Shown: positions 6,223 through 34,392, counted from the first letter of the stretch. The stretch: 64,000 nucleotides of DNA from Patescibacteria group bacterium (GCA_042569365.1 JBHPHK010000004.1:6113-70112), one strand, 5' to 3'. The notes: generated by a model not told the origin, from the sequence alone. Made by a program: numbers and translations.

Positions 6223-6360
6223 TTAGACCGCTAATCGCTTACGGTTTTTTTGGCGGCGTTTTGATAATACACGACGACCTGTTGTTGAGCTGCTCCTCTT
6301 ACGAAAACCGTGAATTTTTGCTCGACGGCGCTTTCTGGGCTGATATGTACGTTTTGGCAT
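6223..6360 (-). CDS. rpmH: 50S ribosomal protein L34
   Basis: This ORF is not in the track (45 aa). The reverse strand translates to [45 protein letters not shown], a canonical L34 sequence. Confidence 0.9.
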
Positions 6361-8032: not shown

Positions 8033-8326
8033 AATAAAAATAAAATAAAATAAAAATATTTTTGACTAACTTTAGTAGAGTGGATATCTACTGGATAGTT
8101 TATGAATAACAACTTGATATGTCTGGTGAGAAAGTGAATAAAAAATCACTCCCCTCTAAACCCTCTGACTTATACACCTCTCTCCACACAAACTATCACT
8201 AACTTCTTCATCTTCTATCCACCTCAATTATCAATCAGTTAAGTAAAAATACTTACCTTTACCCAGTTTCCACACTACTACAATTACTACCACTATATTT
8301 ATATAATATAATTTATTAATAATAGT
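8033..8326. promoter_or_regulatory. putative oriC (dnaA-dnaN intergenic)
   Basis: An A-tract/AT-rich run (AAAATAAAAATAAAATAAAATAAAAATATTTTT, 8033..8065) is a candidate unwinding element. It is followed by at least 5 DnaA-box-like sites: GTGGATAT 8080..8087, TCTCCACA 8181..8188, CTATCCACC 8215..8223, GTTTCCACA 8266..8274 and TGGATAG at about 8092. Confidence 0.6.
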
Positions 8327-9445
8327 ATGCGATTTGTTTGTACTCAAGAAAATCTAAACTCAGTATTAAATATTGTTGCGAGAGCAGTAACTAAAGATAA
8401 TACTTTACCAATTTTAGGAAATATTCTTATTAAAACAGAAGATGGTGGTTTAAGATTGGCCGCGACAAATCTCGAGATTGGTGTGAGAACTATTGTGAGA
8501 GGTCGTGTAGAAGAAGAGGGTGAGTTTACAGTACCTGCTAAATTATTGGTTGATTATGTTAATAATCTTCCGAAAGAGAGAATTACACTGCGTCAAAAGG
8601 AAAATACTCTCGAAATAGAAACTAAACAAAACACAGCCAAGCTTCAGGGCTCTGCAGCAGATGAATTTCCATTGATTCCAGTAGTGCAAGACAAAAAAGT
8701 AGCTGATGTTTTGATAAGCGACTTAAAAATCAGTCTCCAACAAACAGTTTTCGCAGCTGCACAGGATACATCACGTCCTGAAATCGCAGGTCTCTATATT
8801 GGCTTTGAAGATAACCAACTTAGAATTGCAGGTACGGACAGTTTTCGTTTGGCAGAAAAGATTATGTCGGCAAAAAATGTCGCTACAGACGAGTCGCCGA
8901 TTATTTTACCAACCAGAGCCGCACAAGAACTTTCTCGTATCTTAGACAGCAGCACAGAGCGCGAGGAGACAGTTGCAATTTACTTATCACAAAACCAAAT
9001 TCTCTTTAAATTCGGCGATATTGAATTCACTTCTCGTTTGGTAGAAGGAAAATTCCCGGATTACCAACAAATTATTCCACAAGAGTTCAATACAGATGCC
9101 GTTGTGGACCAGGATACTCTCACGCGCGCCTTAAAAACAACAGGCTTGTTTGCGCGTACCGGATCCAATCAACTCAATCTCACTTTCGATGGAGAGCACA
9201 AAAAATTGCAGTTAGCAGCGCGTGCAGATCAGTTGGGAGAAAACCAGGCAGAGGTTCCAGCGAAAGTAACAGGACGAACAGAGACAATTGTCCTTAATTA
9301 TCAATATCTTTTGGATGGACTAGCGGCAGTATCTGCTCAAGAGGTAACTTTGAAAATAAACGACACCCAAAATCCGATAATGTTGAAATCACACGGCACA
9401 GGCAAGGGAGGATTCCTCTATCTTATAATGCCGATAAAAGCATAG
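8327..9445 (+). CDS. dnaN: DNA polymerase III beta sliding clamp
   Basis: 372 aa. Both the N-terminus (MRFVCTQENLNSVLNIVARAV) and the overall pattern are typical of DnaN, and it follows dnaA. Confidence 0.95.
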   Translation: MRFVCTQENLNSVLNIVARAVTKDNTLPILGNILIKTEDGGLRLAATNLEIGVRTIVRGRVEEEGEFTVPAKLLVDYVNNLPKERITLRQKENTLEIETKQNTAKLQGSAADEFPLIPVVQDKKVADVLISDLKISLQQTVFAAAQDTSRPEIAGLYIGFEDNQLRIAGTDSFRLAEKIMSAKNVATDESPIILPTRAAQELSRILDSSTEREETVAIYLSQNQILFKFGDIEFTSRLVEGKFPDYQQIIPQEFNTDAVVDQDTLTRALKTTGLFARTGSNQLNLTFDGEHKKLQLAARADQLGENQAEVPAKVTGRTETIVLNYQYLLDGLAAVSAQEVTLKINDTQNPIMLKSHGTGKGGFLYLIMPIKA

Positions 9446-9512
9446 ACATTTCTTCAAAAACGTGTAATATCTAGATGCGGGGGCAGATGGGCTAGCTGAC
9501 TCTTTTTTATCA

Positions 9513-10661
9513 ATGCGAATCGTAAACCTACAACTAGATAGTTACCGTAACTACGATAAAATCAACCTTACTTTAAATAAGGGGGTTAATATTTTCCGTG
9601 GTTCGAATGCAAGCGGCAAAACGAATCTTTTAGAGGCGATTAGCCTTTTTGTTTTGGGGGGATCGTTCCGAGCACAAGATTTATTTTTAATAAAATATGA
9701 AGAGCCAGCCGCACACGTGTCTCTCAAAATAAAATCTGACCAGGAAAACAAATTAAAGGTAAGTTTGGGAACGACCGACAAGGGCTTAAAGAAAGTTTGG
9801 AAGAAAAATGATATGGGCTCTCAGTTTAGTTATTTGCGCAAGGATCTTCTCGGCGTTCTGTTCTTGCCGACCGACACAGAGTTCGTAACTGGTTCGCCAC
9901 AGATCAGGCGCCAATTTTTCAACCGCGTTTTGTCGCAGATCGATCGCGACTATGCACAAACCCTTTTTCAATATAATAAAACTCTCAGGCAACGAATCTT
10001 TTCTTTGAAAAGAGTGCGTCAAAAATATTCTTTCGAAAATGAGCTTGATACGTGGGACGAAACGCTAGTCAAATATGCCGTGCCTTTGTATCAGGCGCGC
10101 GAAGCACTGGTAAAAAAACTTAATCGTTATTTATCTGAGATTTATAGCGATGTTATTCGGGGAAAGGCGGAGTTGAAGATCGATTATAAGGCATCACCGG
10201 ATGGGATTTTGCTCGAGGATGATCTGGGTCTGCGCCTTTCTGATCAGCTGATCGCTTCGCGCGAACGAGATCTTTCGCGAGTGCGTACGCACAACGGTCC
10301 TCACAGAGACGACTGGCAGTTTATGCTTAATGGAAACCCTCTGAGCGAAACCGGATCGCGCGGAGAGCAGCGCAGTGCAATTATCGCGATGAGGGTTGCC
10401 GAGGCGCGCGTCATTGAAGAAGTATCTAAGCACAGGCCGGTTCTTTTGCTGGATGATGTTCTGTCAGAACTAGATCAGCAGCGCCGCGAGACGTTACTTG
10501 AGATCGTTAAGGAATACCAGACGATTATTACGACTACTGATGTTGATTTTCTAGCCAACCATTTAGACATACTCAGCGATGTTAAGCTGTTTGAGGTTTC
10601 ACAAGGTAAAGTAAAATCAATCAAGCTTGATGATGCAAAAGCTTTATATTTTTCAAACTAA
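9513..10661 (+). CDS. recF: DNA replication/repair protein RecF
   Basis: It has the Walker A motif GSNASGKTNLLEA and the signature/Walker B region (LLLDDVLSELD). It follows the dnaA-dnaN-recF synteny. Confidence 0.9.
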   Translation: MRIVNLQLDSYRNYDKINLTLNKGVNIFRGSNASGKTNLLEAISLFVLGGSFRAQDLFLIKYEEPAAHVSLKIKSDQENKLKVSLGTTDKGLKKVWKKNDMGSQFSYLRKDLLGVLFLPTDTEFVTGSPQIRRQFFNRVLSQIDRDYAQTLFQYNKTLRQRIFSLKRVRQKYSFENELDTWDETLVKYAVPLYQAREALVKKLNRYLSEIYSDVIRGKAELKIDYKASPDGILLEDDLGLRLSDQLIASRERDLSRVRTHNGPHRDDWQFMLNGNPLSETGSRGEQRSAIIAMRVAEARVIEEVSKHRPVLLLDDVLSELDQQRRETLLEIVKEYQTIITTTDVDFLANHLDILSDVKLFEVSQGKVKSIKLDDAKALYFSN

Positions 10662-10958
10662 ATGTCTTGGCATTCCATCCAAAAATTAATTCACACTACT
10701 TCCAAGAAAGAAAAACTTGGGAAAGGTTTGGACGTTATGCTGATCTGCAACTCGGCTGAACGCTCTATCCATAAAAATTGCAGCGAAGCAACTGCACGCA
10801 ACGCGAGCGTTGTGGCTTATACGAATAAAGCTCTGACTGTTTCAGTGAGTGGAGCAGCGTATGCGCAAGATATCAGACTGCACCAAAGAAAAATAATAAA
10901 AGACCTCGATAACGAGATCGAGGTCGGAATTGTCGAGAGGATCTTATATAAGATTTAA
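10662..10958 (+). CDS. DUF721/DciA-like small protein
   Basis: 98 aa, abutting the recF stop. The C-terminal pattern (ALTVSVSGAAYAQDIRLHQRKIIKDLDNEI) resembles DUF721 proteins commonly found after recF. Confidence 0.65.
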   Translation: MSWHSIQKLIHTTSKKEKLGKGLDVMLICNSAERSIHKNCSEATARNASVVAYTNKALTVSVSGAAYAQDIRLHQRKIIKDLDNEIEVGIVERILYKI

Positions 10959-13795
10959 CTCACCGTAACTACAACAGTGTCTGTATGCGAATTCCCCGCA
11001 TAGTCAGTGACGGTCAATATTACGTTATAAATTCCGGCAGAGGTAAAGATGTGTGAAACATTAACGCCAGAGCCTGTTCCTCCATCATCAAAGTTCCATT
11101 CATAACTTGCGATGCCGACATTATCTGTTGAGCCAGATCCGTTGAAGCCTACGGATTGCCCAACTGTTGTGCTCACGTTTGCTCCGCCGTTCGCGACGGG
11201 GTTTTCTGTATCAGGGACAAACGAAATCGTGATCAGGTCTTCAGCGATATTGCCCATGCCGTCGGTAACGCGTACGCGAACCGTGTGACTACCTGCTGTA
11301 AGAGATCCGGTGTATGTAGCCGCGTATGGAGAGTTTGTGTCTGTGGCAAATGAAACATCATCAACAAAGAACTCTACGTTGCCCACGCCTAGCGGCGCAT
11401 TAACACTGGCCGAAACTGTGAAGCTGCCATAAACTGTGGTGCCGTCTCCTGGACCTGTTATCTGGAGCGACAGTGCTGATCCAGCTTGATCAACTGAACA
11501 ATATTCTGTCGGAAGACTGTCAGTATAACCATGCTTGGCACCCCATGCTCTAACCGGCGCCTCCCAGTTGTTATAGAGAGGGTCGTTTTGTGGGTTTTTT
11601 GGAGCAGGTCCATTCGGATTGGTGCGGTCGACATAGTGTAAGATGCTATGTGCCGATTTGAATGTCCTCTCGACAATGTATTGGCTTGGCAAATTGTCTG
11701 GAGCTAGCTTGCTTTGATCAAAAGAACAAACTTTCACAACCTGAGACTTGCCCATCTTACCGGCCAAGGCTGGGTTGCTTGGATTTGTTTTCGTATAACC
11801 GTTAAATTTTTCGACTGGAGTATTAGCCAAGGCATTCTTCATATACTCGTTCCAAATTGGCGTTGCCACAACAAATCCAGGCGAGTTACCACGCATCAAA
11901 GTGTTGTCATTGTTTCCCACCCAGACAACTGCGGCAAGGCTCGGTGTGTATCCAACCGTCCACCCGTCTGTGAAATTTTGAGTCGTACCGGTCTTGGCAG
12001 CGACTGGTCGTCCACTTAGTGTCAATTTGCTGCCGCGTGGAAGTCCAGGTGCGCGTGCACTATCATCTGTCAAAACATTAGTAATCATGCGTGCGATATT
12101 TTCATCGACTACTTGCTCGACGCTGTTTTCAGGATTATGTTCTTCCAGAACTGTTCCGTCAGCTTCCATTACTTTGAGAATGCCAGTCTCTTCAATGCGG
12201 CGACCTTCGTTGGCGAGAGTCGCAAACGCGGATACGTGATCGAGAGGCGTTACGTCATATGCTCCGAGAGCAAACGAAAGACCAACCTCTTCCGCGCTCG
12301 GGAAAGTCGAATAGCCCAAACGATTTGCCAGATCGAGAGTCTCTGGAATTCCGGCCATATACAAAGTCTTAACGGCCGGTGTGTTCATGGAGTTTTGCAG
12401 AGCTTTACGCATGGTTACCGGCCCAGCTTGAGTAAGGCTGTAGTTTTTAGGCTTATAGTTACCGAAGAAAGTAGTGTTCAAGTCGTAGAGAATTGTGTCA
12501 GGCGTGTACCCTCGCTCAAAGGCGGCAGTATACTCCAAAGGCTTAATAGAAGAGCCAGGCTGTTGGAGCGTAGTCGTGATGTTTACGTTTCCATCATTTG
12601 CCGTATCGAAGTAATCAACAGAACCAACCATTGCCAAGATTTCTCCAGTCTTAGGATTAATAGAAGCAAGCGCTGCATTCTTGGCGCCGTGACTTGCATT
12701 AGCGCGCGCGCCGTTTGTCACAGCGGTCTCTGCTATTTTTTGTTTATTTAGATCAAGAGTGGTAATGATTTGCAGTCCACCCTGCTCTAAGCGCTGTTCA
12801 CCGTATCGTTCAGCTAACTGCTCGCGTACATAGAAAACGAAGTGTGGCGCAGTAATATCAATATTCGGTCTTTCGAATTTAGGGAGAGCTCCGACATTTG
12901 CATCATGCTCTTCCTGTGTGATATGACCATGTGCTAAGAGTTTCTCTAGAACGAAATCTTTGCGCACCAAGAGACGATCAGTATGACTACCGTAAGGAGA
13001 ATAGTAGGATGGTGCATTTGGCAAAGAGGCGAGCGTGGCGGCTTCGTTAAGGGTTAGGTCGCCGACTGATTTATTGAAAAATGTTTTGGTCGCAGACTCG
13101 ACGCCATAAGCGTTGCTGCCGTATGGAATTTCGTTTAGATAAAGCTGCAGGATTTCATCTTTTTCTAGGCTGTGCTCGATTTCGATCGCCAAAATGATTT
13201 CTTTTATCTTACGCGTCACCGTTCGATCGGGAGATAAGAGAGAATTTTTAATAAACTGCTGCGTTATCGTAGAGCCACCCTGCTTATTGGCTCCACCACT
13301 ACTGACTGTCTTAAAGACACCGCGGATCAGTCCCATAAAATCAATACCACCGTGTTCGTAGAATTCCTCATCTTCAATAACGATTGTTGCTTCCTTGATG
13401 ATCTCCGGCATTTGATCGATCGGAACCACAGTGCGTTTTTCCTCGCCATAAATCTCATATAAAATATGCTCTCCTGTACGGTCGAAGATTTTTGTCGATT
13501 CTGCGACTAGACGGCTGTTGATTTCGTTTGGATTTGGCAGATCTTTAGCAAACACCACGAACATAATGCCAATCGCGACAACTCCCACAACAAATAGACC
13601 AAGCGCAACATATAAGATGCGTTTGGTTATTTTGATCTTTTGCTCTCTTGTTTTTTTCTTGCGCAACGTGACGAGGCGTCGGTAAGCCTTAGTTTTTCTT
13701 AAGACCTGGTTGGTGCGACCATGAGCTCTTGAAGAAGGCGCGCCGAGAGGTTTTCGGCGGCCAGGCTTAAATTTACGCAAAAATTTCTTAGACAT
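10955..13795 (-). CDS. class A penicillin-binding protein (transglycosylase + transpeptidase) with C-terminal Ig-like/PKD domains
   Basis: It has an N-terminal TM helix, GT51 motifs (EDEEFYEHGGID, GGSTITQQ) and transpeptidase motifs (PGSSIKP, SMN, KTGT). The tail contains the PKD-like repeat WNFDDGGTGSG...YNVILTVTD. Confidence 0.9.
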   Translation of the reverse strand: MSKKFLRKFKPGRRKPLGAPSSRAHGRTNQVLRKTKAYRRLVTLRKKKTREQKIKITKRILYVALGLFVVGVVAIGIMFVVFAKDLPNPNEINSRLVAESTKIFDRTGEHILYEIYGEEKRTVVPIDQMPEIIKEATIVIEDEEFYEHGGIDFMGLIRGVFKTVSSGGANKQGGSTITQQFIKNSLLSPDRTVTRKIKEIILAIEIEHSLEKDEILQLYLNEIPYGSNAYGVESATKTFFNKSVGDLTLNEAATLASLPNAPSYYSPYGSHTDRLLVRKDFVLEKLLAHGHITQEEHDANVGALPKFERPNIDITAPHFVFYVREQLAERYGEQRLEQGGLQIITTLDLNKQKIAETAVTNGARANASHGAKNAALASINPKTGEILAMVGSVDYFDTANDGNVNITTTLQQPGSSIKPLEYTAAFERGYTPDTILYDLNTTFFGNYKPKNYSLTQAGPVTMRKALQNSMNTPAVKTLYMAGIPETLDLANRLGYSTFPSAEEVGLSFALGAYDVTPLDHVSAFATLANEGRRIEETGILKVMEADGTVLEEHNPENSVEQVVDENIARMITNVLTDDSARAPGLPRGSKLTLSGRPVAAKTGTTQNFTDGWTVGYTPSLAAVVWVGNNDNTLMRGNSPGFVVATPIWNEYMKNALANTPVEKFNGYTKTNPSNPALAGKMGKSQVVKVCSFDQSKLAPDNLPSQYIVERTFKSAHSILHYVDRTNPNGPAPKNPQNDPLYNNWEAPVRAWGAKHGYTDSLPTEYCSVDQAGSALSLQITGPGDGTTVYGSFTVSASVNAPLGVGNVEFFVDDVSFATDTNSPYAATYTGSLTAGSHTVRVRVTDGMGNIAEDLITISFVPDTENPVANGGANVSTTVGQSVGFNGSGSTDNVGIASYEWNFDDGGTGSGVNVSHIFTSAGIYNVILTVTDYAGNSHTDTVVVTVS

Positions 13796-15989: not shown

Positions 15990-16502
15990 ATGAGCACGAA
16001 ACGTCCAAATATTATTCTCGGGATTGATCCGGGCATCGAACGGACAGGATTTGGAATAATCGAGTCAGCCGGAAAAAATATCAAACTGATCGACCAGGGG
16101 TGTATCACTACCAGCAGTAAAGATACGGCAGCACAGCGCTTGCTCGATATCGAAGAAGATCTCCAAGAATTATTAGCTCAGCATAAGCCCAATACATTGG
16201 CTATCGAAAAATTGTTCTTCGCAAAAAATGTAACATCAGCATTGGCAGTCGGTCAGGCACGCGGCGTTATCTTGCTGACGTGCGCTAAGGCAGGGCTAAG
16301 CATTTTTGAATACAATCCTATGCAAGTCAAAGTCGCGGTGACCGGATACGGGGGAGCGGACAAAGAACAGATGGAAAAAATGGTGCAAAAGTTGATGAAC
16401 TTAGACTTCGTACCAGCTCCCGATGATGTAAATGATGCGCTCGCACTCGCAATCTGTCACGCGCATAACCAGTCGTTCATTGAAGCGGCTGCCAAAAAAT
16501 AA
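15990..16502 (+). CDS. ruvC: Holliday junction resolvase RuvC
   Basis: It has the patterns ILGIDPGIERTGFGII and DDVNDALALAICH. It forms the typical yebC-ruvC pair. Confidence 0.9.
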   Translation: MSTKRPNIILGIDPGIERTGFGIIESAGKNIKLIDQGCITTSSKDTAAQRLLDIEEDLQELLAQHKPNTLAIEKLFFAKNVTSALAVGQARGVILLTCAKAGLSIFEYNPMQVKVAVTGYGGADKEQMEKMVQKLMNLDFVPAPDDVNDALALAICHAHNQSFIEAAAKK

Positions 16503-16512
16503 TATCTCTAAA

Positions 16513-18027
16513 ATGAAAAATCCAAATAAATATATCATTCCAATATTACTATCAGCTCTGATTTTGTTTGGGGTTGGTTTACAAGGAGTAGGTGCTCAAG
16601 AGCTAGAAGCTGAACAACAGCTCGAGATTGTTAATCTTTCTGGTACTGATGCATTAATTAATGAAGCAGTCAGCTTTACTGTGCCTAGCGCAGATGACGA
16701 AGATCAGGTCATCTGGAATTTTGGCGACGACACTGTCGTGACGGGCAAGACTGTCGAAAAGACATATTCTGAAACAGGGGTCTATGATATAAGCGTGAGC
16801 GTTATTGCGAGCGATGGCACCTTAGAGGTCGGTACGCTGGCAGTTTCAGTTTTCTCTGAATACATTGTTGCGCTTATCGACAGAAGCGTCATGGCCGAAG
16901 AAATTAAAACGCTAGCGACGACTGCCGCCGAGCATAATATCTATTTAAAGACTTTGAGAGCAGATGAGCTCCAGACTCTATACCAACGGGAAAGGTCGTT
17001 GACGGACTTGTTAGTAAATACAGCGCCTGTCTTGAGTCAGGCTAAGTTGCTGATTGACTGGACCCAGGGTACGGTTGGCTTAGCGTCTTTGCTGGCAGCA
17101 CAACAAGCGCCCAATGCTGTTCCCCTAGATCTGAGCAATCAAATTATCATAAGCGTCACGAAGACAATATCTTTCGACAAGCGTATCGCTCAACTTACAT
17201 ACGACGTTATCAATCCGGTTGGTTTAGTGTTAACAGAAAAGGAGACACTGCCAGTCTTGGTGGCTAGCGAATCGCTTAGAGATGTTACAGAAAATCTTCA
17301 GCAGACCGGTACTAATTTCGAAATCATTCAACAAACATCACCGCCTTTGTCAGAGCGCGTAAGTATCGTCAATTTCTTTTTTCCCGGCGTAGAATTTGTT
17401 GCTAAGCGAGGATTGCCACTGAATACGCTTGTCATCTTTCTTGCGCTTCCTTTGATCGCATTATTCTTTATCATCGGCAAACAAGTTATCGGCCTGCGCA
17501 CCTTTGGTTTGTATATTCCTGTTCTTTTGACGGTAGCTTTATTGCCACTCGGGCTTGTGACCGGCCTCGTTGTGTTTCTTGGATCACTCTTTATTACAGA
17601 ATTGATTCGACCGTCGTTTAGATGGATGCGTTTATCTTTCTTACCGCGGTCTGCGATCATGGTAACGGCAATCACACTTCTGTTTCTTGGATTTTTTGTA
17701 GTGGCTGGCACGCTTGACTACATACATCTCCTGCCATACGCAATTTTCCCTGCGCTTCTGTCTATTCCTCTGATTGAGAAGTTTGCTTCAGTACGAATCG
17801 AGAAGAGTCGCTCGGCAGCTATTCGATATACATTGGAAACGATGTTGATGGTCGTTATTAGTTTCGTCGTTATCAATTTACCGGTGATAAATACGCTGAT
17901 TATCAGTTACCCTGAGACGATTATCATTGTGGCTTTGCTTGCTTTCTTGGTAGGGCGCTTTACAGGCTTAAGAATAGTGGAATATTATCGTTTCCAAGAT
18001 CTAATTCGCGCATTGCGTCGCGACTAA
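16513..18027 (+). CDS. signal peptide + PKD domain + central domain + C-terminal ~7-TM module protein
   Basis: My preferred start is MKNPNKYIIPILLSALILFGV, a signal-like sequence. The PKD motif WNFGDDTVVTGKTVEKTYSETGVYDISVSV is present. The last 200 aa are multi-pass hydrophobic, like the 7TM module that accompanies RimK-type ATP-grasp genes. Confidence 0.7.
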   Translation: MKNPNKYIIPILLSALILFGVGLQGVGAQELEAEQQLEIVNLSGTDALINEAVSFTVPSADDEDQVIWNFGDDTVVTGKTVEKTYSETGVYDISVSVIASDGTLEVGTLAVSVFSEYIVALIDRSVMAEEIKTLATTAAEHNIYLKTLRADELQTLYQRERSLTDLLVNTAPVLSQAKLLIDWTQGTVGLASLLAAQQAPNAVPLDLSNQIIISVTKTISFDKRIAQLTYDVINPVGLVLTEKETLPVLVASESLRDVTENLQQTGTNFEIIQQTSPPLSERVSIVNFFFPGVEFVAKRGLPLNTLVIFLALPLIALFFIIGKQVIGLRTFGLYIPVLLTVALLPLGLVTGLVVFLGSLFITELIRPSFRWMRLSFLPRSAIMVTAITLLFLGFFVVAGTLDYIHLLPYAIFPALLSIPLIEKFASVRIEKSRSAAIRYTLETMLMVVISFVVINLPVINTLIISYPETIIIVALLAFLVGRFTGLRIVEYYRFQDLIRALRRD

Positions 18028-18031
18028 ATTA

Positions 18032-19519
18032 ATGCCTAGCATCAATACAGAAATTTTAGGGATGAATGCCAGAAATTCAGTTTATCTAAGACCGAATAAT
18101 TTGAGGAGCGCAGTAAGATTGGCAGACAACAAACTGGAAACTAAAAGAATCTTACGTCGCTACGGCATGCCAACTCCAAACTTGTTGGCGGTTATCCCAA
18201 CTGCTCGTGAGTTAGATGAGTTTGACTGGGCACAGATGCCAAGTAGTTTTGTGATCAAGCCTAACGGAGGGCTAGGTGGAGAGGGCATTATTATTTTGAA
18301 AAAGAAATACAGTCCCAAAAAAGAAAAGGAATCGGGATTAGGCAATGTATTCGGATTAGTGCGTGAAGAAAGCGATGAACCAGCTTGGGTTGGGTCAGAT
18401 GGTCGTATTTGGACCGCATCGAAACTGAAAGTGCATGTAGCCAACATATTGAGTGGTAATTTTTCGATCGCTGGTACTTCAGATATTGCCTTAATAGAGC
18501 AAAGAATCAAGCTTGACCCTATCTTTAAGCCGATTACTCCGAGTGGAATTCCTGATATTCGTGTAATTGTTTTTAATAGAGTGCCAGTGATGGCAATGCT
18601 CCGGTTGCCAACAAAACGATCTAATGGAAAGGCAAACTTAGCGTTGGGAGCAATCGGTGTTGGAATCGATCTGGCAACGGGGATGGCCACAAGTTCATAT
18701 GTTAAAAAGCCACGACGCCAAATCATTGAACGTCATCCAGACACGAATGAACCCCTATCTAATATAAGAATTCCATACTGGACTACGATTTTAAAAATGA
18801 GCATAGAATGTCAGGTGGCAAGTCGACTAGGATTTTTGGGCGTGGATTTAGCATTGGATAAAAATTACGGGCCAATGGTTGTTGAGCTGAATGCAAGACC
18901 CGGCTTAGAAATTCAATCTGTTAATCAAGCATCTCTGCGCCGGCGTTTACGCCGTCTATATGGACTAAAAGTTCGTACAATTAATAAAGGAGTAAAGGTT
19001 GCCAAGGAATTGTTTGGCGGCGATACCGAGACAACTGAAGAGGACAGACCTGTATTAGGAATTATCGAACCAGTAGAAGTATATCAACACAAAAGCAGTA
19101 AACGAGAAAAGATTTTGGCAAAAATAGACACAGGTGCGACATACACTTCTATCGATCGCGATGTTGCGGCGCGACTTGGATACAAAGGCGTCATTTCTGC
19201 CTTTAGAAAATACGGACTCGATAAAACTATGACCAGAACCAAGGCGCGCAGAAGTTATCAGCGTTTCCGAAAAGAGATTTTGCAGAAATACTCGAAAGAA
19301 ATCGTGGATACGCGCATTATTCACTCCAGTCACGGTACGACTTATCGCATTTTGATTCCTCTAAGGTTCATGCTGTCTAATGAATTAGTCGAAACGAATG
19401 CCACGGTCATGGTCCGCAAGCATTTGCGCTATCCTATCATTATCGGCCAGCGAGATTTGAAGAAATATATCGTCGATCCGTCCAAACGACGCCATCATAT
19501 TAAAACTTTCTCACGCTAA
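18032..19519 (+). CDS. ATP-grasp (RimK/alpha-L-glutamate-ligase-like) fused to a retropepsin-like C-terminal domain
   Basis: The N-terminal 330 aa have an ATP-grasp pattern (FVIKPNGGLGGEGIIIL, DIRVIVFNRVPVMAMLRLP, VVELNARPGLEI). The C-terminal domain has the aspartic-protease-like motif AKIDTGATYTSID. It begins 5 nt after the 7TM gene. Confidence 0.75.
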   Translation: MPSINTEILGMNARNSVYLRPNNLRSAVRLADNKLETKRILRRYGMPTPNLLAVIPTARELDEFDWAQMPSSFVIKPNGGLGGEGIIILKKKYSPKKEKESGLGNVFGLVREESDEPAWVGSDGRIWTASKLKVHVANILSGNFSIAGTSDIALIEQRIKLDPIFKPITPSGIPDIRVIVFNRVPVMAMLRLPTKRSNGKANLALGAIGVGIDLATGMATSSYVKKPRRQIIERHPDTNEPLSNIRIPYWTTILKMSIECQVASRLGFLGVDLALDKNYGPMVVELNARPGLEIQSVNQASLRRRLRRLYGLKVRTINKGVKVAKELFGGDTETTEEDRPVLGIIEPVEVYQHKSSKREKILAKIDTGATYTSIDRDVAARLGYKGVISAFRKYGLDKTMTRTKARRSYQRFRKEILQKYSKEIVDTRIIHSSHGTTYRILIPLRFMLSNELVETNATVMVRKHLRYPIIIGQRDLKKYIVDPSKRRHHIKTFSR

Positions 19520-26341: not shown

Positions 26342-27955
26342 TTATTCAGTTGAACCTTCGCGCTTCTCGCGCCGTCTCAGTCCGACGTAGCTGATCGCCG
26401 CAGTCAACGCAAGGCTTATTAAAATTGAGAACAGTAGAGTTGTAGATCCGGCCTGGAGAAGCGAATCTCCAATACCTCCGCCAGTCTCTGTAGAAATATC
26501 TGCATTGCTACGGGGGAGAATACGATAACCGCTGCTGGTTTGGCTGACGACGCCGGTGATCATAAAGAAGTCGCCTTTTTGTTTGTCGGGCAAGTCGATT
26601 TCCGTGTCCGGATCAACATATATCTTCACAGCTCCTGTGTCATCGTCGAGGTAAAAAGTAGAACCGCTCGTTTCCGTAATATTTCCTTGGACGCGCACTA
26701 ATTTGCCCTCGTAATCTTCATCTGTATCTCCAGTTTTAATATCTGTGGGCGTGATGGGCAGATTTGAGCTTAAAAATTCAATGTCAGATAGGTCAGAAAT
26801 TTTTAGCCGTGTTTCACCTTGGGTGGAGCTTAAAGTTCCTTTGATTTTCAACTTATCGCCTAATGAAAAGTCACTGACAGACAAAGTGCCGACATAAATT
26901 TGCATTCCGCCTGTAGAATCTTCGACGTAAAAATATTTCTCACTTAAAACTCCGGGCTTGACCGTAACAATTGCTTCAACTAAGGCTTCTGCATCAGGAT
27001 CTAGCGTGCGTGCTTCTGCAATGGTCAAGACTTCGTCTGTTGGATCGGGATCAACGGGATCAGTTGGGTCTACAGGATCAATCGGATCGTCTGTAACTAC
27101 GACAGTAGCAACTTCAGAATTTTCAGACTGAGCTCCGTGGGAATCAGTTAATGTTATGCTGACGGTATATTCTCCAGGTGTATCATAAATATATTCTCCG
27201 GACATCTCTGTACTCACTCCTCCATCGCCGAAATTCCAAGCAGCCGTGAAAGAATCGTTTTCTGGATCGGTTGAGATCGCGGCATTATAGGTAGCCGTAA
27301 GAGGCGCTTCGCCTTCATCTGGCGTAATTATCGCTGTGATCTGCGGTGCATCGTTATTATCAATACCAGGACTGGAGCCAAAGGCGTTGGCGCTCTGTGA
27401 CCAATTCATAGGCTCGTTAGTGAGTTCGGGAGAGTTCTTCTCCCAGGAAATTCCTTCGCCTGCGTCACCGGACCAGTCAAAGACGTCAATAATATTTCCA
27501 GTGAAGTCTGTGAGTGTTAAAGTGTCGCCGCTGTTTCCGAGTCCGTTGCCAATACTGGTATCGGCGTAGACTTTGATCATAATAGTTGTGGCGGGATCTG
27601 CATTGGCGGTCAGAAAATCGTTATATTCTCCGGCATACTCCGGGTCAACGATAATAGCACGCGCACCCGGCTCCAAAACTGTCCCTGCTTTGCCCCAGTC
27701 ATAGAGGGTCGTATAGTCTTCGAAAACATCGTTATTATCGGCCGGGTCACCCAGCATCCAGCGCCAGAGATCGATCTCAGAGTCGCCAAGATTGATAAGT
27801 TCGACAAATTCGCCCGTGTCTTCATCGAGCGGGTTGGCCATAACTTCTGTGATACGGATTTGTGATAATACTTCAGCTCGGACAGGACTGATATTAACTG
27901 CAAAACTCGTAAATACAAACGTTAAAATAGAAAAGAGGGCAATAGATTTTTTCAT
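26342..27955 (-). CDS. surface protein: signal peptide + lamin-tail domain + PKD + two OB-like domains + C-terminal TM anchor
   Basis: My preferred start is ATG 27955 (MKKSIALFSILTFVFTSFAVNISPVRA). It has the LTD motif RITEVMANPLDEDTGEFVELINLG and a PKD motif (WNFGDGG). The C-terminus is LLFSILISLALTAAISYVGLRRREKRE. The 91 upstream codons of the track ORF run through a terminator and a mini-ORF. Confidence 0.75.
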   Translation of the reverse strand: MKKSIALFSILTFVFTSFAVNISPVRAEVLSQIRITEVMANPLDEDTGEFVELINLGDSEIDLWRWMLGDPADNNDVFEDYTTLYDWGKAGTVLEPGARAIIVDPEYAGEYNDFLTANADPATTIMIKVYADTSIGNGLGNSGDTLTLTDFTGNIIDVFDWSGDAGEGISWEKNSPELTNEPMNWSQSANAFGSSPGIDNNDAPQITAIITPDEGEAPLTATYNAAISTDPENDSFTAAWNFGDGGVSTEMSGEYIYDTPGEYTVSITLTDSHGAQSENSEVATVVVTDDPIDPVDPTDPVDPDPTDEVLTIAEARTLDPDAEALVEAIVTVKPGVLSEKYFYVEDSTGGMQIYVGTLSVSDFSLGDKLKIKGTLSSTQGETRLKISDLSDIEFLSSNLPITPTDIKTGDTDEDYEGKLVRVQGNITETSGSTFYLDDDTGAVKIYVDPDTEIDLPDKQKGDFFMITGVVSQTSSGYRILPRSNADISTETGGGIGDSLLQAGSTTLLFSILISLALTAAISYVGLRRREKREGSTE

Positions 27956-28044
27956 AAACGATAGATTAGATAAATTAATTTTCTCCAATCTAACACGGCG
28001 CGCATTAAGAAAATCTAAAAAAACAATTAAACTATTTTCACAAA

Positions 28045-28092
28045 ATAAAAAAAGGCTCCCCCTGGAGAAGAAAGGTAGAAAAGAGGGGGAGC
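28045..28092 (-). terminator. rho-independent terminator closing the mini-ORF pair
   Basis: The minus strand reads GGCTCCCCCT-(20-nt loop)-AGGGGGAGCC followed by TTTTTTTATTTT. Confidence 0.7.
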
Positions 28093-28149
28093 CAAGGAGA
28101 AGAAAGGTTATGATGGCCTGCATCTTCTCTGAATGCGCCGAGTGTGGTC

Positions 28150-28221
28150 TTAGTCGGTGACGCAGTCCTTGGAAATAACGGCACCGAAACATCGCGTGCC
28201 TGTACAGCCGAAGTGTCGCAT
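28150..28221 (-). CDS. mini-ORF, 23 aa, MRHFGCTGTRCFGAVISKDCVTD
   Basis: It is preceded by ACAAGGAAGG about 7 nt before the ATG. Its SD context and first 9 nt (ATGCGACAC) are shared with the upstream mini-ORF. It contains three Cys and is below the track cutoff. Confidence 0.45.
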   Translation of the reverse strand: MRHFGCTGTRCFGAVISKDCVTD

Positions 28222-28287
28222 AGAACACCTTCCTTGTTGAGGTTAACAGAATTGGTGGCCAGTCTTCGTTTCAAAGAAGCAGACGAG

Positions 28288-28395
28288 CTAGCCGCCGCCA
28301 GTGGAGGCGCCGAAGAGTATTCCGGTCGTTTCGGAGGTTTTGTTGCCAGCGGCGGTGTCTCTCATACCGCCGGCACAGCCGCCAAGGTGTCGCAT
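28288..28395 (-). CDS. mini-ORF, 35 aa, MRHLGGCAGGMRDTAAGNKTSETTGILFGASTGGG
   Basis: It is preceded by ACAAGGAGAA 6 nt before the ATG. It shares the motif TSE[TN]TGIL with the 47-aa ORF at 28929..29072. Confidence 0.5.
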   Translation of the reverse strand: MRHLGGCAGGMRDTAAGNKTSETTGILFGASTGGG

Positions 28396-28524
28396 AATAG
28401 TTCTCCTTGTAATGGTTTATTTTAAGGCTTAATAAGCCTGTTATTTGTAAGCTGCAATCCATTTATATTATAACCTCTGAAAATAGCAAAAACAAGCAAG
28501 GCGTATTATTTAGGTTTCACAATG

Positions 28525-28669
28525 AAAAAGCGCCCTCCCGGAGTGGTCACAAGGGGAGGGCGCGAAGTGATCTAATCCGGGAAAATTCCCGGAAAAGTGG
28601 GGGCATTACCATGTATGTGGCATTCGAGGGTGCCGCATACTTAGGTTAACGATCTCGAGGCAATCGTTA
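28525..28669 (-). ncRNA. candidate small RNA (~145 nt) or leader, class unknown
   Basis: A promoter lies directly upstream. Four hairpins can be drawn: AACGAT..ATCGTT, GTATGCGGCA..TGCCACATAC, CCGGGA..TCCCGG and GCGCCCTCCC..GGGAGGGCGC+TTTTT. The loops and linkers are C-rich (CCUCGA, CCCUCGA, GCCCCCA). No sensible ORF is present. Confidence 0.5.
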
Positions 28670-28675
28670 CTCAAT

Positions 28676-28704
28676 ATACTAGGTGCAATAGAAGTTTTTG
28701 TCAA
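28676..28704 (-). promoter_or_regulatory. sigma70-type promoter (TTGACA-17-TAGTAT)
   Basis: The minus strand has an exact -35 at 28699..28704 and a -10 at 28676..28681. Confidence 0.5.
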
Positions 28705-28711
28705 GAGTTTT

Positions 28712-28754
28712 AAGGTAAAAGAAATAGAGCGCTCCCTAGAAGGAAGCGCTCTAT
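28712..28754 (-). terminator. rho-independent terminator after the 47-aa/14-aa mini-ORF unit
   Basis: The minus strand reads ATAGAGCGCTTCC-TTCT-AGGGAGCGCTCTAT followed by TTCTTTT. Confidence 0.6.
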
Positions 28755-28801
28755 GATGCGTCAAATTTTTCGATTTTGTCCCTTGGGACGTTTGTACAGA
28801 C

Positions 28802-28846
28802 TTAGACGAACCCTGACTCGTATCTCTGCAAATCAGAAACCGTCAT
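28802..28846 (-). CDS. mini-ORF, 14 aa, MTVSDLQRYESGFV
   Basis: A perfect AAGGAGGAA lies 6 nt upstream of the ATG. The ORF sits 82 nt after the 47-aa ORF and just before the terminator. Confidence 0.35.
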   Translation of the reverse strand: MTVSDLQRYESGFV

Positions 28847-28928
28847 AGGGTGTTCCTCCTTGCGGATGTGCCGTCACGGCTGGATTTTTCTTTGTCAGGT
28901 TTGCGACAACTTGCTGTGGACTCAGCTC

Positions 28929-29072
28929 TTAGTTACCGCTTACCGCGTCGAGAAAGGCTTTGTTCCGGCAGTCCTCATTCGCGAGAATGCCAGTGTTTTC
29001 GCTTGTGTGCGCGTTCACCGCGACTTTCTTCTTGTTTTCGCTGGTGTCAGGGTCTTTATTATGGAGGTTCAT
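28929..29072 (-). CDS. mini-ORF, 47 aa, MNLHNKDPDTSENKKKVAVNAHTSENTGILANEDCRNKAFLDAVSGN
   Basis: This is an internal ATG of the 71-aa track ORF, preceded by AAGAGG 9 nt upstream. It is hydrophilic and shares TSENTGIL with the 35-aa mini-ORF. Confidence 0.5.
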   Translation of the reverse strand: MNLHNKDPDTSENKKKVAVNAHTSENTGILANEDCRNKAFLDAVSGN

Positions 29073-29170
29073 AGGCAAGTACCTCTTTTTTGTCTGCGCC
29101 GTATAAATACGGCTCTGGTAATGTTCGAGTTTCGGGAATAACACGACCCGGGGTAAGGAGTGTTTAAGTA

Positions 29171-29199
29171 AATATACTTTTCCCAGCGCGTTTTGTCAA
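29171..29199 (-). promoter_or_regulatory. sigma70-type promoter (TTGACA-17-TATATT)
   Basis: The minus strand has exact hexamers and lies about 90 nt upstream of the 47-aa ORF. Confidence 0.55.
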
Positions 29200-29211
29200 T
29201 TGTGTATAAAG

Positions 29212-29243
29212 AAAAAAGCGCCGCTGATTAAGGCGACGCTTTT
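29212..29243 (-). terminator. rho-independent terminator after the 4-TM protein gene
   Basis: The minus strand reads AAAGCGTCGCC-TTAATCA-GCGGCGCT followed by TTTTTT. Confidence 0.6.
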
Positions 29244-29269
29244 ATGGTTTGATTTTTGAAGTTGGCTGG

Positions 29270-29707
29270 CTAGTCATCATAGTCCAAGTGCTGAAGTTTC
29301 AGATTAACTTCGCAGAGCCGAGCGGGAATTTCCGTGGCCCAGAAGCCTAATTGTAAGAAACAAATCGGAATGGGCCAGATCAGCCACAAAAGCAGTTTGA
29401 CGATCTTGGTGAGCGTCCGTTGCTGGTTGCAGAAAAGGTAAGAGAGAGTCAAGACCAGCATGAGCAGATGCGGGAAATAGTAGACGCCGACTTCGTTTAA
29501 GGAAAACTGGAAAATAATCCAGGGCGCTACCGTGTACAAGAAGGTGTCAGAGAGATTCAAAGGCTGAGTGTCAACGATTGTGAAGAACAGGGAAAGCATA
29601 AAAAATATGCACACGGCCGCAATCGTCACGCGTCCCGCATTGCCAGGACCGCCTTCCAGATCTTTAAGGCTGTTCAGCCATCTGATCAGCGAGAAAGTTC
29701 TTTTCAT
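29270..29707 (-). CDS. small polytopic membrane protein (145 aa, ~4 TM), hypothetical
   Basis: TAGGAGGCACCCAAA precedes the ATG. Four hydrophobic helices are visible, and I recognise no family motif. Confidence 0.65.
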   Translation of the reverse strand: MKRTFSLIRWLNSLKDLEGGPGNAGRVTIAAVCIFFMLSLFFTIVDTQPLNLSDTFLYTVAPWIIFQFSLNEVGVYYFPHLLMLVLTLSYLFCNQQRTLTKIVKLLLWLIWPIPICFLQLGFWATEIPARLCEVNLKLQHLDYDD

Positions 29708-29778
29708 TTTGGGTGCCTCCTATAGGTTACGGTTAAACAGAAAGATGGTTGTTATAAGTTGTTAAACAGCGATATATG

Positions 29779-29807
29779 ATGCTAACAAAATGCCCCGGCT
29801 TTGTCAA
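29779..29807 (-). promoter_or_regulatory. sigma70-type promoter (TTGACA-17-TAGCAT)
   Basis: It reads on the minus strand and lies about 70 nt upstream of ATG 29707. Confidence 0.5.
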
Positions 29808-29844: not shown

Positions 29845-31050
29845 CTAAGCCTTCTTCTTCCTCAAATCAAAACTAATATTCTTGCTTGCTTCTACCTGAG
29901 GCTGATCAAAAGGATTAACTCCGCGCATCCAGCCAGAGTACACCGCAGCATACTGCAGGAAGCCCATCAGTTCGCCGACATTCTCTTCATCCAGCTTTGT
30001 TATCGAAGTCGTGATGACTGGAATCCCGATATTGATCGCATCCTCATAAGTACCACGGTATTCATACTCCATAACCTTCGAGAGAGGAATGTCATCCAAA
30101 TCCGCGAGCGTCCCATCACGCAGAGGAATGTCACCGATCTCTTCCGGAATATATGTTGCGTGATCATGGAAAAAAGTCTCCGGACGAATAAACCAACCGA
30201 CCACGTTCTTGCCTCCACCAAAGAAACGCTGGTTGGTGTGGTGCTGAGACTGCGGGCCTTCGGCGCCGTACATAGTTTGGCCGCCGCCCTCTTTACTGAC
30301 GGATTCATGGAAAAGCTGGACGATCAATTCTGAAATACCGGCTAGTTCATGTGAATAGATTGGGAAAAATATTTCACTGAAACCTTTTTTCTCCAACTGA
30401 TAGAAAGCGGCTGCCACTTGTAGGGCAGGATTTTTTTCCAGCGGAACGGAAGGCGCGCACTTAGCATGCATGCTCTTAAAACCGGCATGGAGTTTGTCGA
30501 TATCAATCTCGAGCAAAGCAGTTGGGAGGAGGGCAGCCTCTGTGCCACCGATAAAACGACCGCCAATGTCCGGGTGCATGAAAGTCTTCCATTTGAGGCG
30601 ATCGGCTATTTCTCGCAGAGCTCCGTTGGGACCTGTGATCGCCGCAATCTTATATTTATGTCGTGAAAAGAATAGTGTGTTTTCGAGTTGTTCGACGTTG
30701 GTACCGGATTTGCTGATCGTTACCACGACAGAATTATCTGCCGGAGCAAAGCGCATCAGGTGTTCCAGATAGTTTGGATCAGACGTGTTGCAGATGAAAA
30801 CTTTGTGTTTGGATTGATGCCAGCCCAGGGCCTCGTAGATCGCCTTGTAGCTGGTGATCGAGCCACCGCGGCCGACGACAATAATGTTGCGGGCATTGCA
30901 ACAGGTCTTCACAGATTCCTTGATTCCTTCCAAGTCCGCTTCGTATTGTGCGAAAGCGGGAACTTTTTGTTTGGCAATAGAGGCGAGCTCTTTTTTAAGC
31001 CCTGCGCCGATGTCTTTGATAGTTGTGTGTTGTAGGTCGTTTTTAAGCAT
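29845..31050 (-). CDS. pgi: glucose-6-phosphate isomerase (short SIS-type PGI)
   Basis: 401 aa with PGI-type motifs (IVVGRGGSITSYKAI, VVTISKSGTNVEQ, GGRFIGGTEAALLP, NPFDQPQVEASK). Confidence 0.8.
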   Translation of the reverse strand: MLKNDLQHTTIKDIGAGLKKELASIAKQKVPAFAQYEADLEGIKESVKTCCNARNIIVVGRGGSITSYKAIYEALGWHQSKHKVFICNTSDPNYLEHLMRFAPADNSVVVTISKSGTNVEQLENTLFFSRHKYKIAAITGPNGALREIADRLKWKTFMHPDIGGRFIGGTEAALLPTALLEIDIDKLHAGFKSMHAKCAPSVPLEKNPALQVAAAFYQLEKKGFSEIFFPIYSHELAGISELIVQLFHESVSKEGGGQTMYGAEGPQSQHHTNQRFFGGGKNVVGWFIRPETFFHDHATYIPEEIGDIPLRDGTLADLDDIPLSKVMEYEYRGTYEDAINIGIPVITTSITKLDEENVGELMGFLQYAAVYSGWMRGVNPFDQPQVEASKNISFDLRKKKA

Positions 31051-33261: not shown

Positions 33262-33348
33262 AGTCAGGAATGTATTAATAATCGATTTAATTATAAGTAA
33301 AGACGCTTAGATAGGCCAGAGGACAAGGAATAGACCTGATTCTTAGAG

Positions 33349-34392
33349 TTAAAGAAGTTTATCTGGACCGTTTTCTGGCGGTTCAATATCTAAATGCTTG
33401 TAGGCCTTTTCAGTGGCGGAACGTCCACGTGGTGTACGTGCCAGAAATCCTCCCTGCAGCAAAAATGGCTCGATAACTTCTTCGAGAGTGTCTTCTTCGG
33501 CCGCGGTAGCTGCAGCAAGAGTACCAATACCAACTGGTCCGCCCTTGAATTGTTCTATTATAGTATTTAAAATGCGCCGGTCGTTTTCGTCGAGGCCTTC
33601 CGGGTCGATACTTAAAAGATCCAAAGCTTCGAGGGCTAAGTCTTTCGTTATTTTTCCGTCACCTTTGACTTGGGCATAGTCTCTAACACGTTTTAATAAA
33701 CGATTGGCGATACGTGGTGTGCGGCGCGCTCTTTGTGCGATTGCTTCGATCGAATCTGCGTCCGCATTAACATCTAAAATCTTTGAGGAACGCTCCAAGA
33801 TATCTTTAATTTCATCTTCAAGGTAAAAGTCCAGCTGGTGTGTAGCACCAAAGCGATCACGGAATGGGGAAGAGAGTAGACCGATGCGTGTAGTTGCTCC
33901 GATAATAGTGAAACGGGGGAGGTCTAGTCTAATGGATTTTGCGGAAGGGCCTTTGCCGATCACGATGTCGAGGACGTAGTCTTCCATTGCCGGGTATAGC
34001 ACCTCTTCTACGATTTTATTCATGCGGTGGATTTCGTCTATAAAGAGAACGTCATTATCTTCCAAGTTTGTGAGGATCGCACCAAGGTCGCCTGCTTTTT
34101 CAATGGCGGGGCCGGATGTCGTTTTGATATTCACGCCCATTTCATTGGCGATGATGTTGGCAAGCGTAGTTTTGCCAAGACCGGGAGGGCCGTAAAGCAG
34201 CACATGTTCGATCGGCTCTTTTCTCTTTTTAGCCGCCTCCATAAATATATTCAAATTGTCTTTAACCTTTTTCTGGCCGACGTAGTCCTTTAGTTTTTTC
34301 GGGCGTAGGCTAAGATCTAGCGAAGCATCTTCGTTTTCTGGCGTAGGAGAGACTACGCGGTCGATCTTTTTCTTTTTGCGTTCAATAGCCAT
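33349..34392 (-). CDS. ruvB: Holliday junction branch migration helicase RuvB
   Basis: It has the Walker A motif [11 protein letters not shown], the Walker B motif LFIDEIH and the pattern [15 protein letters not shown]. Confidence 0.95.

Follow-up and report, generated by a model that had tools for sequence, protein, structure and literature searches.

The minus strand between pgi and the gene of an LTD surface protein, in a metagenome-assembled genome of the Patescibacteria (candidate phyla radiation, CPR), carries what appears to be a chain of four promoter-to-terminator units that would express a 145-residue membrane protein, four mini open reading frames (mini-ORFs) and a conserved structured small RNA (sRNA). 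The locus occupies a 1.9-kb interval of the 64,000-nucleotide (nt) stretch of DNA analysed here, which is referred to as the window (GCA_042569365.1 JBHPHK010000004.1:6113-70112, from a 76-kb contig). The consecutive accessions and locus tags, together with the fact that the protein collection contains no window peptide, suggest that no gene is annotated between that of the membrane protein and that of the LTD protein. We assign a probability of roughly 0.55 to our main reading, in which the features described below are joined by a functional link between the peptides and the membrane protein.

Public data contain one close relative only, Logan contig DRR203715_337 (13,997 bp; L002 in the following); after it, the identities of pgi homologues fall from 83% (protein, L002) straight to 47%. 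The flanking genes of the locus are shared with L002: beyond one end lies the LTD protein, and beyond the other lie pgi, queA, a bPH-domain gene, a Yip1-like gene and ruvB. By blastn and alignments, all four units are present there in unchanged order, and L002 keeps the promoter and terminator of every unit as well as the Shine-Dalgarno (SD) sites and start codons.

Expression units and the variable island

An earlier note on this DNA had described the minus strand as a series of complete expression units, each with its own promoter and terminator. All the elements that it named were found in place, and their signals are kept in L002. The part of the claim that gave every unit a promoter stood as it was for units 1 to 3; no promoter had been listed for unit 4, yet the promoter-like site TTGTTT-17-TATAAT is present there and is also kept in L002. 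In the whole window, the pattern TTGACA-N16-18-TANNNT occurs 19 times against 1.97 expected, a count that none of 100 shuffles reached, and by position most of the 19 sites lie outside ORFs of at least 150 codons. Because the pattern is enriched and mostly located outside such ORFs, TTGACA-17-TAnnnT is probably the real housekeeping promoter type of the organism, and three perfect copies of it lie within 1.2 kb at the locus. When the four promoters of the locus were compared with those of L002, 42 of the 48 hexamer positions were identical, as against 34 of the 68 spacer positions. The units are accordingly described here as having predicted sigma-70-type promoters and intrinsic terminators (Table 1). 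Downstream of the unit 2 promoter, the sequence around the 5' untranslated region (UTR) aligns with L002 over 159 nt at 78% identity (blastn), and its hairpin is formed by GCCGUA..UACGGC in the window and by GCCGC..GCGGC in L002.

As to synteny, which the earlier note had proposed to compare between strains, the order of the units is the same in the two genomes and the content of the locus is variable. The interval between pgi and the LTD gene measures 5.1 kb in L002 and 1.9 kb in the window. The extra L002 DNA in this interval (6941-10100) holds three orphan membrane-protein genes of 238, 276 and 278 codons, of which the latter two encode paralogues (38% identical); the window was found to contain no relative of any of the three. 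Upstream of each extra gene, the unit 1 promoter with its 70-nt 5'UTR module can be recognised again (consensus ..AACAACCGTCTTTCTG..AAGGAGG), which suggests that promoter and UTR were duplicated together with the new genes. The start of unit 2 is duplicated in tandem in L002, giving a 41-residue and a 47-residue ORF. In addition, L002 has a second cassette at 1061-3334, in the interval that separates ruvB from the Yip1-like gene and that is only 115 bp long in the window (33262-33377). This second cassette contains a 128-residue paralogue of the membrane protein, two peptides of the same family (65 and 42 residues), a truncated 9-codon copy of the 23-residue type, two identical 28-nt terminators and, on the opposite strand, a 260-residue orphan gene. 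Judged from the two sequences, the cassette is a lineage-specific and strain-variable island, the parts of which have been duplicated, shuffled as modules between copies and partly lost.

Table 1. Features of the locus and its immediate neighbours, in the order of transcription of the minus-strand units (window coordinates; promoters, terminators and ORFs are predictions)
Feature	Position	Strand	Remarks
pgi	29845-31050		NCBI MFC1632778.1, tag ACFL1U_01380, annotated hypothetical
Unit 1 promoter, TTGACA-17-TAGCAT, TG before -10	29779..29807	-	L002: TTGACA-17-TAGTAT, 6979-7007
145-residue membrane-protein gene	29270..29707	-	Unit 1; NCBI MFC1632777.1, tag ACFL1U_01375, annotated hypothetical
Unit 1 intrinsic terminator	29206..29243	-	11 pairs, then T-run; L002: equivalent place, 10603-10624
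Unit 2 promoter, TTGACA-17-TATATT	29171..29199	-	11/12 matches; L002: TCGACA-17-TATAAT, 10643-10671
Unit 2 conserved 5'UTR, about 92 nt	29073..29164	-	Hairpin 29113-29098
47-residue ORF, MNLHNKDPDTSENKKKVAVNAHTSENTGILANEDCRNKAFLDAVSGN	28929..29072	-	Unit 2; AAGGAGG-like SD
14-residue ORF, MTVSDLQRYESGFV	28802..28846	-	Unit 2; SD AAGGAGG at 28861-28855
Unit 2 intrinsic terminator	28724..28754	-	14 pairs; L002: 11307-11336
Unit 3 promoter, TTGACA-17-TAGTAT	28676..28704	-	L002: 11363-11391, hexamers 12/12, spacer 8/17 identical
Structured sRNA, about 145 nt, four hairpins	28522..28670	-	Unit 3
Unit 4 promoter-like site, TTGTTT-17-TATAAT	28467..28495	-	L002: TTGCCC-17-TATAAT, 11549-11577
35-residue ORF, MRHLGGCAGGMRDTAAGNKTSETTGILFGASTGGG	28288..28395	-	Unit 4; AAGGAGG-like SD
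23-residue ORF, MRHFGCTGTRCFGAVISKDCVTD	28150..28221	-	Unit 4; AAGGAGG-like SD
Unit 4 terminator, GGCUCCCCC ... GGGGGAGCC then U7	28047..28093	-	L002: region conserved, about 11925-11975
LTD/PKD surface-protein gene	26342-27955	-	Pfam

Mini-genes, membrane protein and small RNA

Between positions 29260 and 28040, five SD-led ATG ORFs of at least 14 codons were counted on the minus strand, against a mean of 0.17 in dinucleotide shuffles, none of 2000 of which reached five. The fifth of them (63 residues, start at 28462) was discarded as spurious: its apparent SD site is the -10 region, and it reads ATG-TAG in L002. The other four are the mini-ORFs of Table 1, the frames of which, proposed in the earlier note, are kept in L002. 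The clearest case of conservation is the 14-residue ORF, in which 13 of 14 residues are identical in L002 (11216-11260); of its eight substitutions, six fall at the third codon position and all six are synonymous (P about 0.02 for at least six of eight at one chosen codon position if substitutions were spread evenly, by our own calculation). For the 47-residue ORF, the SD site, the ATG and the TAAGAGC stop context are kept in both the 41-residue (10772-10897) and the 47-residue (10980-11123) ORF of L002, and the latter shares its length of 47 codons and its first eight residues as well. The SD site and ATG of the 35-residue ORF are likewise kept, its positional orthologue being a 60-residue ORF (11653-11835).

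The short motifs that recur among these ORFs behave in a similar way. SE[NT]TGIL is common to the 47- and 35-residue ORFs, with four synonymous and two non-synonymous codon differences, and the codons of ExTGIL vary (ACC/ACT, GGA/GGC, ATA/ATC/ATT, CTC/TTG). The C-terminus of the 35-residue ORF, ETTGILFGASTGGG-stop, matches ENTGILLGASAGGG-stop of the 42-residue ORF of L002 and GASTGGG-stop of the 65-residue ORF; the serine codon of GASTGGG is TCC or AGC, depending on the copy. The 23-residue ORF matches the N-terminal half of the 65-residue L002 ORF with 74% identity, and SKDCVTD is common to it and to the 65- and 42-residue ORFs. In the seven SKDCVTD codons, all five substitutions between the 23-residue ORF and the 42-residue L002 ORF are synonymous and at the third position, and between two L002 paralogues 8 of 10 substitutions in SKDCVTDFRP are at the third position. 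When the ratio of synonymous to non-synonymous changes was calculated in six frames for segments defined at the nucleotide level, the proposed frame was the best in all five comparisons. Since substitutions in the 14-residue ORF and in the shared motifs are mostly synonymous and at the third position, both appear to be under protein-level selection. Open frames of 93 codons also run antisense to the mini-ORFs (28144-28425 and 28860-29141, plus strand). They were rejected as genes, as they cross the intergenic SD sites and have no start signals, and their openness is attributable to the purine- and GGC-rich sense codons.

The mini-ORFs had been described as related to one another, and this was borne out for three of the four: the 47-, 35- and 23-residue ORFs share modules and, with five L002 ORFs, form one modular family to which the 14-residue ORF is unrelated. 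In order, the modules are an N-terminal M-R/H-x-L/F-G-C/G, SKDCVTD(FRP), T/S-x-E-N/T-TGIL and, at the C-terminus, GAS-T/A-GGG directly before the stop. The 35-residue ORF contains 10 Gly and 5 Thr, and the 60-residue L002 ORF, which includes the stretches GGCGGG and CGGCAGG, has 19 Gly and 3 Cys. The grand average of hydropathy (GRAVY) is negative in three of the four window mini-ORFs and +0.11 in the 23-residue ORF. Cationic members are confined to two L002 paralogues (isoelectric point, pI, 10.4-10.5). A lipoprotein reading of MRHLGGC was rejected because there is no hydrophobic h-region, and a lasso-peptide reading of T-G-I-L...E/D because the 35-residue ORF has no acidic residue after Gly.

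The gene of the 145-residue protein is preceded by the SD site AGGAGG. Its L002 orthologue has 150 residues (10116-10568; 44-45% identical), and the 128-residue paralogue in the second L002 cassette (1106-1492) is 26-29% identical. The earlier note had called it a protein with four transmembrane segments (4-TM). About four helices are supported by hydropathy and by a low-confidence model, although one segment is only weakly hydrophobic: the hydropathy profile shows three segments of strong hydrophobicity and a weaker fourth, and an AlphaFold2 model built on a two-sequence alignment has four membrane-length helices with low confidence (mean predicted local distance difference test, pLDDT, 59.5). 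The same analyses also show an amphipathic helix at the N-terminus and an acidic tail at the C-terminus. Across the three members of the 4-TM family, 24 columns are invariant, including C33, C116, N51, R97 and Q119, and predicted membrane helices contain both of the invariant Cys. There is no invariant His, H80 being shared by the window protein and the 150-residue orthologue only.

The RNA of unit 3 is, as far as folding and comparison of its two versions can tell, a conserved structured RNA. The region 28672-28520 of the window folds at -59.2 kcal/mol (z = -6.1), and none of 200 shuffles folds as well; the L002 version folds independently (z -5.4) with the same layout of four hairpins. In hairpin 1, the AACGA/UCGUU base is kept in L002, and the distal stem and the loop differ. 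Hairpin 2 is a hairpin in both with wholly different sequence (AUGCGGCA..UGCCACAU in the window, GCGACA..UGUCGC in L002). The core at 28591-28565, which consists of hairpin 3 and the linker AUUAGAUCACUU (also given as GGAUUAGAUCAC), is invariant, with 27 of 27 positions identical, and hairpin 4 (28563-28530) is the terminator. RNAalifold, applied to a MAFFT alignment of the two sRNAs, recovered hairpins 3 and 4 only; two sequences are too few for formal covariation statistics. No ORF is conserved inside the sRNA between the window and L002. A known structured RNA that would account for the apparent ORFs, one of the objections raised in the earlier note, was not found by Rfam: at the gathering threshold the whole window gave a single tRNA, and at E values up to 10 the best match in the locus was RsaE, on the opposite strand, with 27 bits against a threshold of 79. 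A reading of unit 3 as an attenuator or riboswitch was rejected, as no conserved anti-terminator was found and unit 4 has retained a -10 box of its own.

No convincing target of the invariant part of the sRNA was found within the locus. A duplex target scan with the whole sRNA was swamped by the GC-rich terminator, and k-mer complementarity to the locus was at chance (about 3 eight-mers expected in the window comparison, 7 seen). An 8-nt complement, near chance, connects the window sRNA (28625-28618) with the ENTGIL codons of the 47-residue ORF (28992-28985), and in L002 a 10-nt complement connects hairpin 1 with the IETTG codons of the 41-residue ORF (10822-10831); the latter lies in a non-homologous part of the sRNA. 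Outside the mini-genes, the linker GGAUUAGAU (28578-28570) complements AUCUAAUCU (27971-27963) with eight Watson-Crick pairs and one G-U pair. This site lies 8-16 nt upstream of the start codon of the LTD gene, which has no SD site close to its ATG, and L002 has a weaker match in the same place (12066-12075). Matches of this type occur about once per kb, and this one is regarded as a lead only.

The family set appears to be new and very narrowly distributed, being known from two genomes. For the 4-TM protein, a word-indexed search of 5.8 billion proteins returned the protein itself only, a full HMMER scan of 1.84 billion representatives returned the L002 orthologue only, and a PDB profile search with the 4-TM alignment gave no usable match. 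A profile of eight family peptides found only two L002 peptides in the 5.8-billion-protein collection. The peptides and the 4-TM protein matched nothing in Pfam (E up to 1) or NCBIfam (E up to 10), the extra L002 proteins gave no usable match there either, and PADLOC and PHROGs gave no significant match to the 4-TM protein, the peptides or the extra L002 proteins. There was likewise no significant match in phage records (tblastn with the 4-TM protein) or plasmid records (blastn with the locus DNA), and none to the invariant 24-mer of the sRNA or a degenerate pattern of the 14-residue ORF in the JGI metagenome contigs. Scans of viral contigs and exact-protein look-ups with the window's own proteins were also without a match. 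When GTDB genomes were scanned with pgi, the single locus returned was an unrelated one from Erysipelotrichaceae (28% identity).

Proposed function and rival explanations

In the paralogous L002 cassette the 4-TM gene is again followed by family peptides. Because this order is kept while the 4-TM proteins are only 26-29% identical, the peptides and the 4-TM protein probably work together; the cassette order is the sole evidence for this link. What the partnership does can be proposed only tentatively, and we regard the following scheme as a possibility that is rather less than even. The peptides, abundantly expressed and fast-diversifying, would act at or outside the cell envelope, in antagonism, in superinfection exclusion or in signalling, whether between cells or with their host bacterium. 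For the producer, the 4-TM protein would be a partner in immunity, export or processing, and the sRNA may serve as a local regulator. This interaction-peptide scheme is put forward because the promoters are near consensus, the peptides diversify rapidly and vary in copy number, and the membrane partner is private to the locus. A still bolder version, which we think doubtful, would see here an undescribed class of ribosomal peptides in episymbiotic Patescibacteria: hydrophilic, leaderless and Gly/Cys-rich, they might be handled by a 4-TM protein with two invariant Cys, be tuned by the sRNA and serve antagonism, superinfection exclusion or host signalling without a known leader, maturase or ABC exporter.

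Several observations weigh against the main reading. The window peptides are hydrophilic (GRAVY -0.96 to +0.11, pI 4.4 to 8.0), and no signal peptide, hydrophobic helix, membrane-spanning stretch or recognised leader was found in them. Among the window ORFs of at least 150 codons scanned with Pfam, no exporter, C39 peptidase, maturase or two-component system was found. The 4-TM gene has its own predicted promoter and terminator and so would not be co-transcribed with the peptides. The body of the 47-residue ORF has diverged from its positional orthologue without bias, with 21, 26 and 25 substitutions at codon positions 1, 2 and 3, and the counterpart of the 23-residue ORF in the second L002 island is truncated to MRNFGAVIS-stop, which implies that some members of the family are dispensable or decaying. 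In the six-frame comparison one antisense frame came second; it has no start signals and contains stop codons in two comparisons, and its rank is expected because the wobble positions coincide. Furthermore, the motif blocks were partly chosen for amino-acid conservation, and two genomes only carry the locus, such that the comparative tests rest on a few dozen substitutions.

A variable island in which tandem small-peptide genes accompany a small membrane partner is a known type of layout, and the analogy that the earlier note drew with bacteriocin or signalling-peptide loci and their immunity proteins is plausible, even though several defining features are absent. The earlier note had also seen no known class, double-Gly leader, modification enzyme or exporter, and family scans agreed, finding none in the locus or the 64-kb window; the Pfam scans for maturases and exporters covered the locus, the extra L002 genes and 40 window ORFs. 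Compared with leaderless bacteriocin loci of the aureocin A70 and garvicin KS type, the locus shares three or four related small ORFs in tandem, no N-terminal leader or signal peptide, accessory strain-variable DNA and adjoining small membrane proteins, which are there thought to act in immunity or export (PMC6131525). Those loci carry an ABC transporter, of which none was found among the scanned window ORFs, and there is no sequence similarity; only here does each unit have its own promoter and terminator, with a structured sRNA interleaved. Leaderless bacteriocins are also highly cationic (pI above 9) and amphiphilic (PMC6131525), a character that the window peptides lack since they are hydrophilic with a pI of 4.4 to 8.0. 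Class II bacteriocin and peptide-pheromone loci resemble the locus in small peptide genes beside a small polytopic membrane protein and in quick diversification, but no LSxxELxxIxGG-type leader, C39 peptidase/ABC exporter, histidine kinase or response regulator was found here. A microcin C-like precursor was rejected: the C-terminal Asn of the 47-residue ORF is not kept in L002, where the counterparts end in Ala and Glu, and no ThiF-family gene was found among the window ORFs scanned. The locus is therefore not filed under any bacteriocin, RiPP (ribosomally synthesised and post-translationally modified peptide), Agr or type I toxin-antitoxin family.

Each rival explanation fails at least one tested feature. 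The mini-ORFs might be small intracellular proteins, such as modulators of enzymes or membrane proteins, next to an unrelated sRNA and adjacent to the 4-TM gene only through an insertion hot spot. The hydrophilic character of the peptides, the lack of export signals and the transcriptional independence of the units agree with this, and the three unrelated membrane-protein genes gathered in the same L002 interval indicate that the pgi-LTD site collects accessory genes. We nevertheless consider it unlikely, given that the 4-TM paralogue of the second L002 cassette, at 26-29% identity, is again directly followed by family peptides, and that rapid module shuffling, duplication and truncation fit genes of conflict or interaction better than housekeeping regulators. 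It is very unlikely that the mini-ORFs have no function at all, as transcribed non-coding or decaying sequence in which the motifs are leftovers of duplication. The diverged body of the 47-residue ORF, the L002 member cut to 9 codons, the absence of the family from other public data searched and the openness of the antisense frames in purine- and GGC-rich sequence speak for this reading; the excess of synonymous changes in the proposed frames of five independent comparisons, the conserved SD sites, start codons and stop codons, the 30-fold excess of SD-led ORFs over shuffles and the use of both TCC and AGC for serine at the same motif position speak against it.

Modified peptides would be a further explanation, in which the mini-ORFs are RiPP precursors with ExTGIL as the recognition or cleavage motif, genes elsewhere in the genome supply the maturases and exporter, and immunity or transport falls to the 4-TM protein. 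CPR bacteria do carry RiPP loci (PMC8939145), and the composition rich in Gly, Cys, Ser and Thr (35-residue ORF, 60-residue L002 ORF), and the short conserved motif between variable N- and C-terminal parts recall precursor families such as those of microcin B17 or linear azole peptides and of the CPR graspetides; several diverged precursor-like genes also share one locus, as they do in many RiPP loci (PMC8939145). We hold this to be quite unlikely, as neither YcaO, radical-SAM/SPASM, LanB/C/M or a peptide-adjacent graspetide ATP-grasp ligase nor C39 or an ABC exporter was found in the locus or the 64 kb, and no NCBIfam or Pfam precursor model matched. The only ATP-grasp gene (18032-19519) is of a sugar-transfer-associated type and lies 8 kb off, on the other strand, in a glycosyltransferase operon. 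The signatures of CPR graspetides, a Phhx(1,2)h leader and a TxxxTx(6-10)Dx(1-4)D core (PMC8939145), were not found by eye in the window or L002 peptides, and apart from graspetide loci no report of such small peptides in Patescibacteria was found in the literature.

Two systems that pair a small peptide with an RNA or a membrane protein come to mind as well, and both seem highly improbable here. Type I toxin-antitoxin loci such as hok/sok, fst and tisB/istR set a small ORF beside a separate terminator-ended sRNA in a compact strain-variable locus, and the sRNA could accordingly repress a peptide mRNA by base pairing, for which the 8-nt (window) and 10-nt (L002) complements to unit 2 peptide codons might be cited. 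These complements lie in non-homologous parts of the sRNA at about chance level, however; the genes have no antisense overlap or extended complementarity, no peptide has the hydrophobic helix of type I toxins, and within the locus nothing convincing was found for the invariant part of the sRNA to pair with. In the staphylococcal Agr system, the AgrD peptide is paired with the polytopic AgrB, and by analogy a Cys peptide (SKDCVTD-F) could be cleaved and cyclised by the 4-TM protein to give a secreted autoinducer. The sizes of the peptides (23-65 residues) are similar to AgrD. The locus resembles Agr in a peptide of about 20-65 residues with a strictly conserved Cys beside a small polytopic protein with invariant Cys, the SKDCVTD(F) motif appears to be under strong purifying selection, and the two invariant Cys of the three 4-TM members are in predicted membrane helices. 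It differs in that no Pfam AgrB (PF04647) or AgrD (PF05931) match was obtained at E up to 1, the three 4-TM members share no invariant His, no sensor kinase or response regulator was found among the scanned window ORFs of at least 150 codons, the 35- and 47-residue ORFs lack the Cys motif, and the order of peptide modules is not that of AgrD.

Genomic setting and significance

The surrounding 64 kb encode ordinary chromosomal functions, as judged by Pfam scans: dnaA, dnaN, recF, yidC, ruvB, ruvC, queA, tRNA synthetases, ClpB, a class A penicillin-binding protein and glycosyltransferase operons. A foreign origin of the locus was rejected, as its GC content (0.43-0.48) matches that of the flanks. 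An origin neighbourhood is recognisable at 4153-10661, with jag and yidC on the minus strand, dnaA (6593-8032), dnaN (8327-9445) and recF (9513-10661), which would place the peptide locus about 20 kb from the likely origin. The window pgi is of a short type (401 residues) with a weak Pfam PGI match (26.5 bits); beyond the 83% homologue, its relatives are 44-48% identical and mostly labelled as DPANN archaea (Woesearchaeota, Nanoarchaeota) or nameless, with some Doudnabacteria. On the opposite strand, 8-10 kb from the peptide locus, an operon begins at 16432-19519 (plus strand) and continues to 26294. Its first gene encodes a PKD and 7TM_transglut membrane protein (531 residues) and its second a 495-residue fusion of an ATPgrasp_ST ligase with a RimK-type Zn_protease domain, followed by three GT4 glycosyltransferases, an APH-family kinase, a PHP protein and a glycogen-synthase-like GT5. 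The operon resembles a membrane-associated system for ATP-grasp peptide ligation or for sugar transfer.

The findings indicate that 1.3 kb left empty by standard annotation would hold four mini-genes and a structured RNA with textbook expression signals. With the family in two genomes only, its wider importance is uncertain. The locus nonetheless offers a compact experimental set, consisting of four synthesisable peptides of 14-47 residues, one 145-residue membrane protein and one 145-nt RNA. Patescibacteria have tiny genomes and live attached to other bacteria, and we know of very few factors by which they compete or make contact with a host. Fast-diversifying peptides accompanied by private membrane proteins would be good candidates for such factors.

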